Of a DNA stretch of 64,000 nt, positions 5,428 through 45,855 are shown piece by piece. A program made the translations under genes and the position numbers. Where the stretch lies: contig JAUSJC010000007.1 in the NCBI GenBank assembly GCA_030647775.1, positions 50,038 through 114,037 on the forward strand, written 5' to 3'. Numbering within the stretch: position 1 is the stretch's first letter; each line of letters opens with the position of its first letter. Source of the DNA: Candidatus Curtissbacteria bacterium. GTDB lineage: Bacteria; Patescibacteriota; Microgenomatia; Curtissbacterales; GWA2-41-24. A model generated the notes under the pieces. That model was not told the origin of the DNA. It ran no database searches and worked only from the letters and a program-made list of their open reading frames with translations.

Positions 5428-5838
5428 ATGGTAAGTAAACAAAAACGGATCAGCATTATTGCAACCAGCTTTCACAAAAAACACGTGGAGGTGATGCTTG
5501 AGGAGGCAAGAAAAACGTGCGGAGAAGTAAGGCTTGCCGTCGCCAATGAAGTATGGGTTCCGGGATCACTTGAAACCCCCTTGGCATTGCAAAGGGAACT
5601 TATGTCAGAAAAAGTAGATGGGGCCGTAGTTCTGGGTATCATCGAACGCGGAGAAACAAAGCATGGGCTGGTGATGGGCATGGCGGTAATATCTGCTATT
5701 ATCGAAATTCAGCTTCAGGCGGGGAAACCGATTGGTGTCGGGATTCTCGGGCCGGAAATTACCCCTGACCAAATTAAGCCACGCCTGAAACCATACGCAA
5801 AAGATGCTGTTTTAGCCGCTTGGGCAATGTTAAAATAG
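5428..5838 (+). CDS. ribH: 6,7-dimethyl-8-ribityllumazine synthase
   Basis: 'ISIIATSFHKKHVEVMLEEA...VWVPGSLETPLA...VVLGIIERGETKH' aligns with the lumazine synthase family. Confidence 0.8.
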   Translation: MVSKQKRISIIATSFHKKHVEVMLEEARKTCGEVRLAVANEVWVPGSLETPLALQRELMSEKVDGAVVLGIIERGETKHGLVMGMAVISAIIEIQLQAGKPIGVGILGPEITPDQIKPRLKPYAKDAVLAAWAMLK

Positions 5839-10488: not shown

Positions 10489-10562
10489 GGGAGGCCGAGG
10501 GGAATTGAACCCCCAACCCGCAGCTCCACAAGCTGCTGCTCTACCATTGAGCTACGACCTCC
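10489..10562 (-). tRNA. tRNA-His(GTG) with G-1 and genomically encoded CCA
   Basis: Anticodon loop UUGUGGA; extra 5' G opposite discriminator C73; the only tRNA in the window followed by an encoded CCA. Confidence 0.8.
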
Positions 10563-10609
10563 ACGAATGGCCATATTATATCAGTTTTACGAGTTACGAT
10601 CAGAGTAAA

Positions 10610-42887: not shown

Positions 42888-42985
42888 GTCATCCTGAACT
42901 CGTTTCAGGATCTCTTTTGCGTTAGATGCCGAAATATACAGTGCCATGCGCCCTTGCTTCGCTCGGAGCTAAAGTTCGGCATGAC
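42888..42985. repeat. repeat family B copy 2
   Basis: See copy 1; located immediately upstream of the uvrA start. Confidence 0.7.
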
Positions 42986-43069
42986 GAAGTGCAAAGCGAA
43001 TCTACAATTCTAGCACCAAATACAATATTTGGGCAAGAGTTATTGCTGTGAATTTACTTTGACCGCTTG

Positions 43070-43899
43070 GATTTGGTCGCGGAGGATGGCTGCCTGGCTA
43101 ATGCAGTGGCTAATGCAGGTCCGACCTGTTTAGCTTTTGTTTGCTCTCCTTCTCTTCAAATTCCAAAGTTAATTCTGCCAGAACTTCTGCGGAATTAATC
43201 TGGTAATCTTCCACAAAACTCTTGTACGATGAATTGTTTTGCAAGAAGGCTGTTTTTGCAATATTGAAGAAAGCAAGTATTTCTTCCGGGTGGATCCATG
43301 TAGTGTTTCTGGATCCTAAATATTCACCATAGCTAGAATAAGGATATGACAACAGGTCGGACCTGTTTTGATCGTCTAATGTGGCAATACCAGCCGGGTT
43401 TAAATGAATATACCGAGTTAGGTGAAGTAAGTAGGAATCTTCGGTTACAAGAACTCCTTTATATTTTCCTTGAAAAAGTGGCCCTACTCTTTCGTGACGT
43501 TCGTTAAAGTACTTTGTGTAAGCATTACCAATTCTTCTCATAAAACCGACTATCCCGTACTTAGTATTCTGTTTAAGCAATAAATGAAAATGGTTCGGCA
43601 TTAAGGCATAGCAAATAAGTTGTACTTCTTCGAAGATCTTCGATTGTCTTACAGGTCGGACCTGTTTGGGCGTAGGTGGTAGTAAATAGCTTTTAAGGTA
43701 TGAGAGGAAAATTTTGTAATCCATTTCGTCGTCAAAAACTATTCGTTTATCTACTCCACGGTTGTACACGTGATAAAAACCACCCTCTAAGTATTGTTTG
43801 ACGGAGTTTTTCGAAGGCATGCAGAATATAATAATACACCAAAGCAGGTCGGACCTGTTATGGGGATTTGAGTGACATGATTTGGTCGCGGAGGATGGC
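43070..43899. mobile_element. IS200/IS605-family (RAYT-like Y1 transposase) element bounded by perfect 21-bp direct repeats and carrying four 17-bp palindromes
   Basis: Direct repeat 'GATTTGGTCGCGGAGGATGGC' at 43070..43090 and 43879..43899. Palindrome 'AACAGGTC(G/C)GACCTGTT' at 43115..43130, 43351..43367, 43651..43666 and 43844..43860. The insertion truncates the uvrB 3' end. Confidence 0.65.
43110..43820 (-). CDS. IS200-like Y1 (HuH) tyrosine transposase / RAYT
   Basis: HuH motif 'MPNHFHLLL' and catalytic Tyr region 'RYIHLNP'; likely start at the Met of 'MPSKNSVKQYLEGGF'. Two of the palindromes lie inside the reading frame, translated as 'NRSDL' and 'VRPV'. Confidence 0.65.
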   Translation of the reverse strand: MPSKNSVKQYLEGGFYHVYNRGVDKRIVFDDEMDYKIFLSYLKSYLLPPTPKQVRPVRQSKIFEEVQLICYALMPNHFHLLLKQNTKYGIVGFMRRIGNAYTKYFNERHERVGPLFQGKYKGVLVTEDSYLLHLTRYIHLNPAGIATLDDQNRSDLLSYPYSSYGEYLGSRNTTWIHPEEILAFFNIAKTAFLQNNSSYKSFVEDYQINSAEVLAELTLEFEEKESKQKLNRSDLH

Positions 43900-45855
43900 G
43901 GCGCGTTCAAAGTCGAGGACGCGGGCGGCATCTTTCATCTCGCGGGTGAGAACCCTGACCAATTTTTGTTTGTCGTCAGCAAGTAGTGAACCCTCTTTGG
44001 CACGGTCGAGAGCGGATTGGATAACCGCATCCTGGTAGGACTTTTTCTTTTCTTCGAACATCTGTTCGCGATTGACCAGTTTTTCGCGGATAGGTTTGGC
44101 GATAGATTCGGGGGTGATACCATGTTCTTTGTTGTAATCGGTCTGGATTTTGCGTCTGCGGTTGACCTCGTCAATGGCCCTTTGCATGGAACCGGTAATG
44201 TTGTCTGCATACAAAACGACCAAACCCTCGAGGTGGCGGGCGGCGCGGCCCATTGTTTGCACAAGGGACGTTTCGGAACGCAAAAATCCTTCTTTGTCGG
44301 CGTCTAAGATGGCGACAAGAGAGACTTCAGGCAGGTCTAGACCCTCTCTGAGTAAATTTATACCTACAAGAACATCATAATTACCCAACCGAAGGTCGTC
44401 GAGGATATCGCTTCTATCTAAAGTTAGGACTTCCGAATGTAAATACTGGACTTTTAAGCCTTTTTCTTCTAAATATTTGGACAGTTCCTCTGCCATACGT
44501 TTTGTAAGCGTAGTAACCAATGCCCTTTGTTTTTTGGCGGTGCGCTTCTTAATTTCGGCCATTAAATCTTCTATTTGGCCTTCGGATGGCCGGATTTCTA
44601 TCTGCGGATCGATTAAACCCGTTGGCCTAATCAATTGTTCGACGACTTGGCTGGAAATATTCAGCTCGTACTGTGCCGGTGTGGCGGATGTGTAAACAAC
44701 TTGCTTGATTTTGCGTGAAAATTCGTCAAATCTCAACGGCCGGTTGTCAAACGCGCTTGGCAGGCGAAACCCAAAATCAACAAGCATTTGTTTCCTAGCA
44801 CGGTCACCATTATACATGCCGTTTATTTGGGGTACAGTCATATGGGATTCGTCGAGTATTAATAGATAATCTTTAGGAAAATGGTCCAGTAAACTAAATG
44901 GGGGATCTCCGGGATTCCTGCCGTCAAAGTACCTCGAATAGTTTTCAATCCCCTTGCAGTATCCAAAAGTTTGAATCATTTCCAGGTCGTATAGTGTTCT
45001 TTGCTTTAGCCTGTGAGCTTCCAATTCTTTGCCGGCGGCTTTAAGTTCCTTTAGCCGAGCTTCTAGTTCCAGCCGGATTGATTGCATCGCCCCGAAGGCG
45101 CTTTCGTCCGAGGCTACATGATGTTTGGCGGGGTAAATAAAAGCGAAGTCGAGTTTTTCGATTGTTTGGCCCGTTATTGGAGAAATTGATTCAATTTTAG
45201 ATAATGTTTCGCCCGAGAAAGTAAGTTTGAGGGCATCGTTTTCGTACGAAGGAAGGATTTGGACTGATTCGCCGCGGATCCTGTAAGTTCCCCTGGCAAA
45301 ATCAACGTCGTTCCTTTCATATTGAAGCTTGGCAAATGCCGTCAAAAGGTCGTTCCTGGCCCAATCTTTTCCTATTTCCAGGGTAACTCTGGAGTTTTGG
45401 TATTCTGTGGGAGAACCCAAGTTGTAGATAGCGGAAACAGAAGCAATGACTATGACGTCTTTTCTAGTAGCCAGAGCGGTGGTAGCAGCCAGCCGCAGCC
45501 TGTCGATTTCTTCATTAATTTCGGTTTCTTTTTCGATGTAAGTGTCTGTAGCCGGCATATAGGCTTCCGGCTGGTAATAGTCGTAATAAGAAACAAAGTA
45601 GCAGACGGCGTTTTGGGGGAAAAATTCGCGGAATTCCTGGTAAAGCTGGGCGGCGAGTGTTTTGTTGTGGGAAATAACCAAAGTTGGTTTTTGGGTTTTT
45701 TGGATAACGTTGGCCATGGTAAAAGTTTTACCGGAGCCTGTTACGCCAAGCAGGGTTTGGTATTTAAATCCTTTTTCGATGCCCTTAACTAACTTATCAA
45801 TGGCTTGCGGCTGGTCACCGGTAGGTTTATAAGCTGATGTAAGTTCGAATTTCAT
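43858..45855 (-). CDS. uvrB: excinuclease ABC subunit B, with its C-terminal codons replaced by the insertion
   Basis: 'GVTGSGKTFTMA' Walker A, helicase motifs, beta-hairpin region, C-terminal UVR domain '...ERAAILRDQI'. The original terminus 'QAVKVNSQQ*' can be read beyond the downstream direct repeat at 43041..43069. Confidence 0.9.
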   Translation of the reverse strand: MKFELTSAYKPTGDQPQAIDKLVKGIEKGFKYQTLLGVTGSGKTFTMANVIQKTQKPTLVISHNKTLAAQLYQEFREFFPQNAVCYFVSYYDYYQPEAYMPATDTYIEKETEINEEIDRLRLAATTALATRKDVIVIASVSAIYNLGSPTEYQNSRVTLEIGKDWARNDLLTAFAKLQYERNDVDFARGTYRIRGESVQILPSYENDALKLTFSGETLSKIESISPITGQTIEKLDFAFIYPAKHHVASDESAFGAMQSIRLELEARLKELKAAGKELEAHRLKQRTLYDLEMIQTFGYCKGIENYSRYFDGRNPGDPPFSLLDHFPKDYLLILDESHMTVPQINGMYNGDRARKQMLVDFGFRLPSAFDNRPLRFDEFSRKIKQVVYTSATPAQYELNISSQVVEQLIRPTGLIDPQIEIRPSEGQIEDLMAEIKKRTAKKQRALVTTLTKRMAEELSKYLEEKGLKVQYLHSEVLTLDRSDILDDLRLGNYDVLVGINLLREGLDLPEVSLVAILDADKEGFLRSETSLVQTMGRAARHLEGLVVLYADNITGSMQRAIDEVNRRRKIQTDYNKEHGITPESIAKPIREKLVNREQMFEEKKKSYQDAVIQSALDRAKEGSLLADDKQKLVRVLTREMKDAARVLDFERAAILRDQIMSLKSP

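Follow-up and report, generated by a model that had tools for sequence, protein, structure and literature searches.

Background

RAYT-type enzymes are widespread, and their role is poorly understood. Among the described groups, TnpAY1 subclass 2.1 (Bertels Group 1 RAYTs; "TIRYT") has the motifs NH[YF]H, FQ, Y[IV]HLNP and SS in a protein of ~238 aa (Table 1 in PMC6006769), and is reported to be without nearby hairpins resembling repetitive extragenic palindromic (REP) sequences, with terminal inverted repeats in some members (PMC6006769). In-frame REPs within the gene itself, tnpA(REP), have been reported for subclass 2.4 (Bertels Group 4) and were called unique to that subclass (PMC6006769). 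Here we report on a 64-kb stretch from a Candidatus Curtissbacteria bacterium (contig JAUSJC010000007.1, positions 50,038 to 114,037; referred to as the window), in which the 3' end of the repair gene uvrB contains an 809-bp insert with a Y1/HUH gene and four copies of a short hairpin, H1 to H4. The reading that we favour, and consider reasonably probable, is that the insert is a horizontally acquired, self-contained REPtron-like cassette, i.e. a RAYT/TnpA(REP)-like Y1 gene with four cognate hairpins of a 7-bp stem and a 3-nt loop, that integrated by recombination in conserved uvrB codons.

Palindromes within other genes are also known. Intragenic REPs and Rickettsia palindromic elements (RPEs) are translated in frame, often supply stop codons (Di Nocera et al. 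2013, PMC3733652), and are frequent in uvrA, uvrB and other repair genes (PMC3733652). A text search of PMC6006769 found no mention of Microgenomates or Parcubacteria, and candidate-phyla-radiation bacteria were apparently outside its survey. In the literature searched we found no description of a Y1 hairpin family in Patescibacteria, an absence that is not thereby proven; the Microgenomates family presented here is large and apparently undescribed.

Throughout, coordinates are window positions, while L-numbers denote related loci and P-numbers UvrB proteins. uvrB, the Y1 gene and uvrA are all encoded on the minus strand, and the layout is read in that sense. Feature coordinates are collected in Table 1.

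Results and discussion

The uvrB insertion and its origin

The closest UvrB orthologues, P0122 (93% identity), P0124 (90%) and P0126 (87%), come from loci with the gene order lexA-uvrB-uvrA and no Y1 gene (L085, L087 and L088). In the window the 21-mer GATTTGGTCGCGGAGGATGGC is present at both ends of the insert. These empty sites carry it once (21 of 21 positions in L088, 20 of 21 in L085 and L087), followed by CAATCGGTAAAA..., which encodes the ends QSVKAQ, QSVRIQ and QSVKTQ before the stop codon, and then by the same spacer, GTGCTAGAATTGTAGATTC, as in the window. The empty-site tails are homologous to the tail that stands beyond the second 21-mer in the window. From this comparison the window therefore corresponds to an empty site with 809 bp added, and the displaced tail is the native one. 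Thus, an insertion in the 3' end of uvrB, as proposed in an initial annotation of the stretch made from sequence, is borne out: the 809-bp cassette is missing in the closest relatives. The displaced end can, as was claimed, still be read on the minus strand, but its stop codon ends at 43040 and not at 43041.

On the minus strand the order is uvrB (...FERA-AILRDQI-MSLKSP-stop), H1, a 24-nt spacer, the Y1 gene with H2, H3 and H4, a 12-nt tandem duplication, GGCA, the second 21-mer (43090-43070), QAVKVNSQQ-stop to 43040, a spacer and uvrA. The present uvrB ends in AILRDQIMSLKSP and the displaced end in AILRDQIQAVKVNSQQ, each followed by a stop codon; the last seven codons of the present gene are supplied by the insert, in which the Y1 gene is the only gene and no tyrosine or serine integrase is encoded. 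The 21-mer has exactly two copies in the 64 kb, even with up to three mismatches allowed (0.01 expected in a shuffle control), and on extension the two copies agree in 23 of 24 nt. The palindrome CAGGTCSGACCTG has exactly four (43116, 43353, 43652 and 43845; again 0.01 expected). Shuffle controls rule out a chance origin for both the repeat and the palindromes, which were recognised correctly from the start, including the opposite centre base of one palindrome: on the plus strand it is C in the copy at 43116 and G in the other three.

The tail now in use, MSLKSP-stop, is like those of more distant Curtissbacteria (P0210, LFSLKSPNS; P0133, MELKSPN; P0188, LVLKSPN), and we therefore infer that the insert brought the uvrB end of another lineage. 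Natural ends of the form ...DQIMSLKSP, named in the initial annotation as a finding that would speak against its reading, are thus approached in distant orthologues (...SLKSPNS, ...ELKSPN, ...VLKSPN), but the closest relatives end otherwise. Taken together, the tail comparisons show that a uvrB-like, putatively foreign tail was supplied by the insert and that the native tail was displaced.

Between the window and its closest relatives 65-70% of the synonymous sites differ (proportion of differing synonymous sites, pS, 0.65 for the closest). Given this saturation and two identical 21-mers, the insertion is therefore much younger than the split from these relatives. Synonymous sites are saturated in every pair, and amino-acid identities were used instead of synonymous distances for dating the transfer of Y1 against that of uvrB. 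The nearest Y1 homologue has an identity of only 82%, while there are UvrB orthologues at 87-93% identity without a Y1 gene, and between the window and L002 the Y1 proteins are 81% and the UvrB proteins 75% identical. Judged by these identities, the cassette is shown to be of putatively foreign origin. As for unusual conservation of the DNA at the end of uvrB, as an att site might show, third-position identity is only mildly raised there (0.67-0.71 against a mean of 0.51, standard deviation 0.09), and conservation is just as high elsewhere in the gene.

Alternatively, the insertion could be ancient and vertically inherited, with precise loss in the closest relatives by recombination between the repeats. 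A Y1 gene lies between uvrB and uvrA in eight loci including the window (L002, L003, L004, L031, L032, L057, L089/L090), and repeat-mediated deletion would recreate exactly the empty site that is observed; but a non-coding 21-mer would not have kept 21/21 identity while 65-70% of the synonymous sites changed, and the present tail is like those of distant lineages, not near ones. On tail likeness, repeat identity and synonymous saturation we reject ancestral presence with later loss, which we consider hardly credible.

The Y1 gene and its product

The N-terminus MP(S/A)KN is kept in all homologues and the start is therefore fixed at the ATG at 43820 (MPSKN...); the 273-aa open reading frame (ORF) reaching up to 43931 (43110-43931, minus strand) is an artefact of upstream read-through. 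The 236-aa product, with the motifs NHFH, LFQG, YIHLNP and YSSY, matches Pfam PF01797 (Y1_Tnp) with 33.2 bits (cutoff 23; E=6.2e-8), and no other Pfam domain was detected at E<=0.01, including C-terminal helix-turn-helix (HTH) domains (Bac_DnaA_C, HTH_23, HTH_28). The NCBIfam match to REP_Tyr_transpos (NF047646, RAYT) reaches 36.1 bits, under the cutoff of 80. Across 26 homologues H77 and H79 (HuH) and Y137 are unvarying, and in alignment A1 so are N76, H77, H79, Y137, N141 and P142, in agreement with the original assignment of the gene as a Y1/HuH transposase. The Y motif, YIHLNP, has the Y---NP form, the class 2 signature of Quentin 2018 (PMC6006769), and by its motifs the gene matches TnpAY1 subclass 2.1.

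Relative to L002, L089 and L090, the three closest relatives, the ratio of nonsynonymous to synonymous change (dN/dS) in the Y1 gene is 0.03-0.055; the gene is therefore a working gene, and these values show that it is under strong purifying selection. Of 8,000 database candidates scored, 7,722 were relatives of the Y1 protein, and GTDB representatives contain at least 562 Microgenomates Y1 loci. Its 100% match is annotated as a Candidatus Curtissbacteria metagenome-assembled genome (MAG), and its database clusters have a single member on a single contig. No relative of the element was found in IMG/VR that would indicate carriage by phages.

A profile search against solved structures gave a weak match to ISDra2 TnpA (2xm3; E=1e-3) and did not reach E. 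coli TnpA(REP) (4ER8). The AlphaFold (AF2) model is mediocre (predicted local distance difference test, pLDDT, 59.7), with an acceptable catalytic core and a C-terminal part of low confidence. In this model the segment encoded by H2 is predicted to be coil between helix 32-46 and strand 66-73, and that encoded by H3 a coil with pLDDT <50 directly after the helix with the catalytic Tyr.

Within one MAG, CAZBTH01, we found at least four divergent paralogues (L041, L046, L073 and L084; 43-48% identical to the window Y1), three of which have clear hairpins, each with its own hairpin sequence.

Hairpins across the Microgenomates family

According to the initial annotation two of the palindromes lie inside the Y1 reading frame without breaking it. 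This is correct for H2 and H3, but H4 falls within the coding sequence (CDS) too, so that three of the four hairpins in the window are translated. Folded as single-stranded DNA, all four form hairpins, with stems of 5-7 bp, a 3-nt loop and a modest stability of -4.1 to -6.9 kcal/mol. The hairpin foot does not have a GTAG/GTGG tetranucleotide and is A-rich (AAACAGGT...), and a search of Rfam gave no known RNA family (best match E=0.52). On inspection the palindrome was judged not to be a LexA box, given its CAG-N7-CTG spacing and outer bases that vary between elements.

For the wider family we compiled 86 loci with Y1 relatives 43-82% identical, spanning Curtiss-, Woese-, Levy-, Davies-, Chisholm-, Shapiro- and Gottesmanbacteria. 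Four places hold its hairpins: one ~35 nt 5' of the ATG, two coding for coil loops of the protein, and one at the stop codon. Repeated hairpins were found 5' of the ATG in 63 of the 86 loci and at the stop codon in 49, while intragenic ones are essentially confined to window residues 50-59 and 150-159; the density of perfect 3-nt-loop hairpins at the Y1 gene is 3-fold that of the flanks. With a stricter test, an identical perfect hairpin is present on both flanks in 40 loci, 28 of which also have an internal copy, and residues 40-69 and 140-159 account for 38 of the 39 internal copies (~0.01 copies per gene expected by chance). These data show that in-frame palindromes are the standard layout of a large Microgenomates family and not an oddity of one copy. 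The intragenic-palindrome architecture first described as atypical is real, but it is general in this family, and in-frame REPs had already been published for subclass 2.4.

Between elements we distinguish eight stem types (AAGGT, AGGGT, CAGGT and others), and within each element the sequence is uniform. For example, L067 has four copies of TGACAGGGC-CWG-GCCCTGTCA, and L011 four copies of its own hairpin, one grown to a 29-nt perfect palindrome in the CDS; in some loci (L053, L049) the hairpins form inverted doublets. The palindrome is read in varied frames and orientations, giving QVRPV, QVGPV or NRSDL, and RRSHLY at site 1 of L008. In the clade formed by L003, L004, the window, L002, L089 and L090 the stem codons CAG, CCT, AGG and CTG are unvarying in all six genes, where synonymous sites are saturated (pS 0.7-0.8), whereas the loop varies and accordingly encodes D, H or N. 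The loops of H1-H3 change jointly in this clade (CCG; CTC/GAG/CTC; CGC/GCG/CGA), and the loop of H4 is CGG in six of six members. Invariant stem codons, a varying loop and the frame change in L008 together point to a constraint on DNA or RNA, and therefore to copies that evolve in concert. The other frames and orientations, the changing loop residue and the invariant stem codons also rule out that QVRPV and NRSDL are protein motifs. In the same clade H2 is often the reverse complement of H1. All four hairpins lie on the likely transcript, and because of this an additional role in mRNA is possible.

Scanning a metagenome collection for the exact 17-mer gave 83 stretches, among which all multi-copy ones and two single-copy ones carry a Y1 homologue; the number of remaining matches is about what chance would give in a collection of this size. 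Outside the Y1 genes hairpin copies are rare, with 9 in 191 kb of the relatives' flanks, yet clearly more frequent than by chance (~0.01 expected). In L003 two copies of the hairpin of that genome, ACAGGTGAGACCTGT (1232-1246) and ACAGGTGACACCTGT (10556-10570), are in frame in other genes, one for an rsmI-like methylase and one Pol IV-like (IMS), and encode TGLTC and TGVTC. The L003 methylase has no indel relative to its L004 homologue; its palindrome therefore arose by substitution or patch conversion and not by insertion.

At the place of the 12-nt tandem duplication of the window, L002 (~5727-5760) has CCTGTTTTAGA in two exact copies and a third lacking one base. Tandem duplications from the H4 3' arm suggest repeated slippage, or cleavage and rejoining, at H4.

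Displaced gene tails in related loci

Duplicated target tails are not confined to the window. In the relatives they measure 21 to ~130 nt and are seen at uvrB, at a gene for a pfkB kinase and at a third gene; in all cases the duplicated segment extends to the stop codon of the target gene and its upstream boundary is variable. Elements with a Y1 protein 81-82% identical to that of the window sit at the same place in uvrB with duplicated segments of other lengths. The displaced uvrB fragment is ~110 nt in L090, where it starts directly after H4 (LSKLSTRKMKDAARNLDFEKAAVLRDQIMILRPKNL-stop), ~70 nt in L089, and ~55 nt and decayed in L002. In L090 8 codons differ only synonymously in a comparison of 28 codons, and one residue differs between the copies within the 20 codons MKDAARNLDFEKAA(I/V)LRDQI. 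With mostly synonymous differences, both copies have therefore evolved as working uvrB, in different lineages. L038 has a 58-nt repeat with 2 mismatches that includes the stop codon of the upstream gene, and in L012 the tail of a convergent pfkB-family kinase gene (EKLKENTKIVAKEI-stop) has a displaced counterpart (EKIKENSKIMDKEI-stop) on the far side of the Y1 gene.

These lengths bear on classical transposition, in which the 21-mers would be a genuine 21-bp target site duplication (TSD) from a staggered cut and MSLKSP-stop whatever the element terminus encodes. The 21-mers are perfectly identical, they flank the insert exactly, and the empty site has one copy, all as such a mechanism would have it. 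Against it, other Curtissbacteria have natural UvrB tails that the new one matches (among them SLKSP in P0210), the duplications of related elements differ in length and their copies show divergence of the synonymous type, the window contains the element only once, the database clusters are single-member, and HUH Y1 elements make no TSD (Quentin 2018, PMC6006769). We regard this explanation as very improbable. A fixed 21-bp TSD is rejected on the match of the new tail to other UvrB tails and on the varying lengths and synonymous divergence in relatives. Of the duplication claimed in the initial annotation, what stands is the repeat and not a fixed duplication of the transposase type; it is better read as probable shared homology at a tail-replacing integration than as a target duplication.

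In L031 and L032 the Y1 gene lies between uvrB and uvrA, antisense to uvrB, with displaced RDQIKEL... tails. In the uvrB-uvrA spacer of L031 (3055-3910) three displaced uvrB tails stand in series (VDFETAARLRDQIKELSN, AARIRDQIKELKV and EQAAQILDFEEVARIRDQIRELSF, each followed by a stop codon), with a HEPN and nucleotidyltransferase pair between the second and the third, and a 287-aa C39-like peptidase ORF before uvrA. Here the end of uvrB behaves like a hot spot of serial integration. In L031, L032 and L057 the Y1 gene between uvrB and uvrA has the orientation opposite to that of the window; each flanking palindrome is its own inverted repeat, and inversion by recombination between them is thus conceivable.

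Such tails could also mean that integration is site-specific, restores the target and is catalysed by the Y1 enzyme itself, with a mobile unit that includes the captured 3' end of the target gene: cleavage at a short site in a conserved gene end and joining there would leave the gene with a working end, displace the old end and give the same product, as with tRNA-gene integrases. Tail duplication or replacement beside Y1 units at three or more target genes and in both orientations, the serial tails of L031, the lack of any other recombinase gene in the insert, the fact that the displaced fragment of L090 begins directly 3' of H4, and tandem duplications beside H4 that suggest local cleavage and rejoining would all fit. 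The distance between hairpin and junction, however, varies from 25 nt in the window to 0-8 nt in L090 and ~70 nt in L038, the junctions show no short motif in common, a displaced tail also accompanies the HEPN/nucleotidyltransferase cassette of L031, which has no Y1-type hairpins beside it, and known Y1 transposases leave no duplication (Quentin 2018, PMC6006769). We see integration by the enzyme as possible but rather unlikely. Somewhat more doubtful still is the broad form of this idea, that the family represents a new integrase-like enzyme which would insert its own cassette, and perhaps others in trans, into conserved 3' ends of housekeeping genes by a target-restoring reaction with a long, variable duplication; the uvrB tail would then be a serial hot spot, somewhat integron-like, and the in-frame hairpins recombination or regulatory sites kept uniform by enzyme copying.

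A replicative, nick-primed integration would account for other aspects of the same tails. A HUH nick near the gene end would prime synthesis, and template switching onto the element and back would leave a variable partial duplication of the target. The duplications are long, variable in length and in every case extend to the target-gene end, the two copies of the L038 repeat are almost identical, and there is a precedent among HUH enzymes in adeno-associated virus (AAV) Rep at AAVS1 (Henckaerts 2009, as cited in PMC2900306). The mostly synonymous differences between copies (L090, L012) and the foreign-looking tail in the window are left unexplained; we consider this route improbable.

A model for the integration

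In the horizontal-transfer reading that we prefer, the ancestor of the cassette would have sat right after the stop codon of a donor uvrB, a position proposed because H1 still overlaps or abuts the uvrB stop codon in the window and in L090. Donor DNA consisting of the last part of uvrB and the cassette would have entered a relative horizontally and, most likely driven by homology, recombined there in the conserved AILRDQI codons. The exchange could have been a single crossover of a circular form having the 21-24 nt of homology and the tail, or two crossovers with a donor already carrying the duplication; either would yield exactly the structure observed, and the 21-bp repeat would be homology shared at the junction and not the duplication of a staggered cut. 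By analogy with IS200/IS605 TnpA and E. coli TnpA(REP), the Y1 protein presumably binds and nicks the hairpins in single-stranded DNA. The two internal hairpins may persist because they lie in permissive protein loops, and a process of copying or conversion, instead of independent mutation, probably keeps them identical to the flanking ones.

Several points weigh against this reading. A homology of 21-24 nt is at the lower limit for RecA-type recombination. No near-identical donor element was found, so that the transfer is inferred and not observed. The near-identical 58-nt repeat of L038 might just as well have been newly duplicated during insertion, for which spread by homology offers no explanation. 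No hairpin copies lie beyond the cassette in the 64-kb window, and a RAYT-like role in spreading REPs is thus hypothetical here. Finally, all tail duplications were found by inspecting Y1 loci. Their association with Y1 may be genuine and would then speak for catalysis by the enzyme; L031, where the HEPN/nucleotidyltransferase cassette has a displaced tail of its own but lacks adjacent Y1-type hairpins, points away from such a mechanism.

With one gene and four substrate copies in 0.8 kb, the cassette is a compact system of which there are thousands of natural variants, with hairpin and protein co-varying. The Microgenomates Y1 family makes both the recognition of hairpins by the enzyme and the process that keeps hairpins uniform directly testable. 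The recurrent duplication or replacement of target ends (uvrB, pfkB and others) suggests that cassettes spread by short homology between related candidate-phyla-radiation genomes, or else a previously unknown HUH integration mode, and the window illustrates that a repair gene can accept an insertion without inactivation.

Other features of the locus

Table 1. Features of the uvrB locus and of the insert, in window positions (strand in brackets where assigned)
Feature	Position (strand)	Basis or remark
Insert, 809 bp	43091..43899	Missing from the empty-site orthologues; alignment A2, both junctions against L085, L087 and L088
Insert, alternative placement	43070-43878	Equally valid because of the 21-bp repeat
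Insert junctions (slash)		GAACGCGCC/GCCATCC and ...CAGGCA/GCCATCC
Present uvrB, 665 aa	43858..45855 (-)	NCBIfam UvrB equivalog, 1014 bits; Pfam UVR domain at residues 631-663
Repeat copy A, AILRDQI codons in working uvrB	43879..43899	21-mer search; single copy in empty sites
Putative imported uvrB tail ATGTCACTCAAATCCCCATAA (MSLKSP-stop)	43858..43878 (-)	Resembles UvrB tails of more distant Curtissbacteria
uvrB stop codon	43860-43858 (-)	Abuts H1
Hairpin H1 (CAGGTCCGACCTG, coding strand)	43845..43857	24 nt 5' of the Y1 start codon
Y1/HUH RAYT-like gene, 236 aa	43110..43820 (-)	NHFH, FQ, YIHLNP and YSSY motifs; Pfam Y1_Tnp
Hairpin H2, read as QVRPV	43651..43665	Residues 53-57; family site 1
Hairpin H3, read as NRSDLL	43351..43367	Residues 152-157; family site 2
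Hairpin H4, read as the last codons, NRSDLH-stop	43116..43130	Centre G on the coding strand
Tandem duplication, 12 nt, exact, CTGCATTAGCCA twice (coding strand)	43095..43118	Begins within the H4 3' arm
Repeat copy B, start of the displaced native uvrB end	43070..43090	21-mer search; empty-site alignment
Displaced native uvrB tail, QAVKVNSQQ-stop	43040..43069 (-)	Aligns with the functional empty-site tails; conserved spacer GTGCTAGAATTGTAGATTC next

In the spacer before uvrA a promoter-like site (TTGCCC-18 nt-TAGAAT, with the TG of an extended -10) is present at 43007-43036 on the minus strand. Its -10 region, GTGCTAGAAT, is kept in the empty-site loci; it is probably part of the uvrA promoter and is intact after the insertion. 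Between this putative promoter and the uvrA start codon lies a hairpin with an 8-bp stem (ATCCTGAA-CTCGT-TTCAGGAT, 42891-42911).

Comparison with known systems

With the IS200/IS605 enzymes (IS608 and ISDra2 TnpA) the window element shares the HUH/Tyr core and subterminal hairpins that are presumed to be recognised as single-stranded DNA. It differs in a Y motif of the form Y...NP and not Y...Q and in a protein ~90 aa longer; moreover, no multiple identical copies of it were found (a single one in the window), it has hairpins in the ORF, and a duplicated uvrB end flanks it.

Integrative elements at gene 3' ends (tRNA and tmRNA genes) likewise bring a replacement end that keeps the target intact while the original end is displaced, and repeated use of their sites gives tandem displaced ends, as in L031. 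The window unit differs from them in being 0.8 kb long and without a tyrosine or serine integrase, and the duplicated length varies by lineage. Intragenic REPs and RPEs are high-copy and dispersed, whereas the Microgenomates hairpins are nearly confined to the enzyme gene.

The likeness to RAYT/TnpA(REP) systems is closer. The window gene is flanked by its own cognate hairpins, H1 and H4, in a REPtron arrangement, and so are the genes of at least 40 related loci, while the paralogue-specific hairpins of CAZBTH01 echo the one-RAYT-one-REP pairing of Pseudomonas. As in subclass 2.4, cognate REPs both flank the gene and sit inside it, in a peripheral region of the protein and with the frame unbroken. 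Subclass 2.4, however, has WQ, YIxNNP and long or "double-foot" REPs with a GT[AG]G foot, where the window has FQ and YIHLNP, and the Microgenomates hairpins are short, without a GTAG foot and at fixed positions family-wide, one site before the HuH motif (53-57 versus 77-79) and one after Y137 (152-157).

Subclass 2.1 is matched, as judged by motifs and length, in NHFH, FQ, YIHLNP, the SS of the tail and a size of 236 aa, and also in low copy number and divergent paralogues within one genome. The differences are that no C-terminal HTH domain was detected by Pfam in the window protein, and that the Microgenomates family has cognate hairpins flanking and inside the gene. Subclass 2.1, described as hairpin-less, now has a 2.1-like lineage with hairpins, including inside the gene: the Microgenomates lineage has the motifs of 2.1, yet shares with 2.4 the carrying of cognate hairpins in frame.

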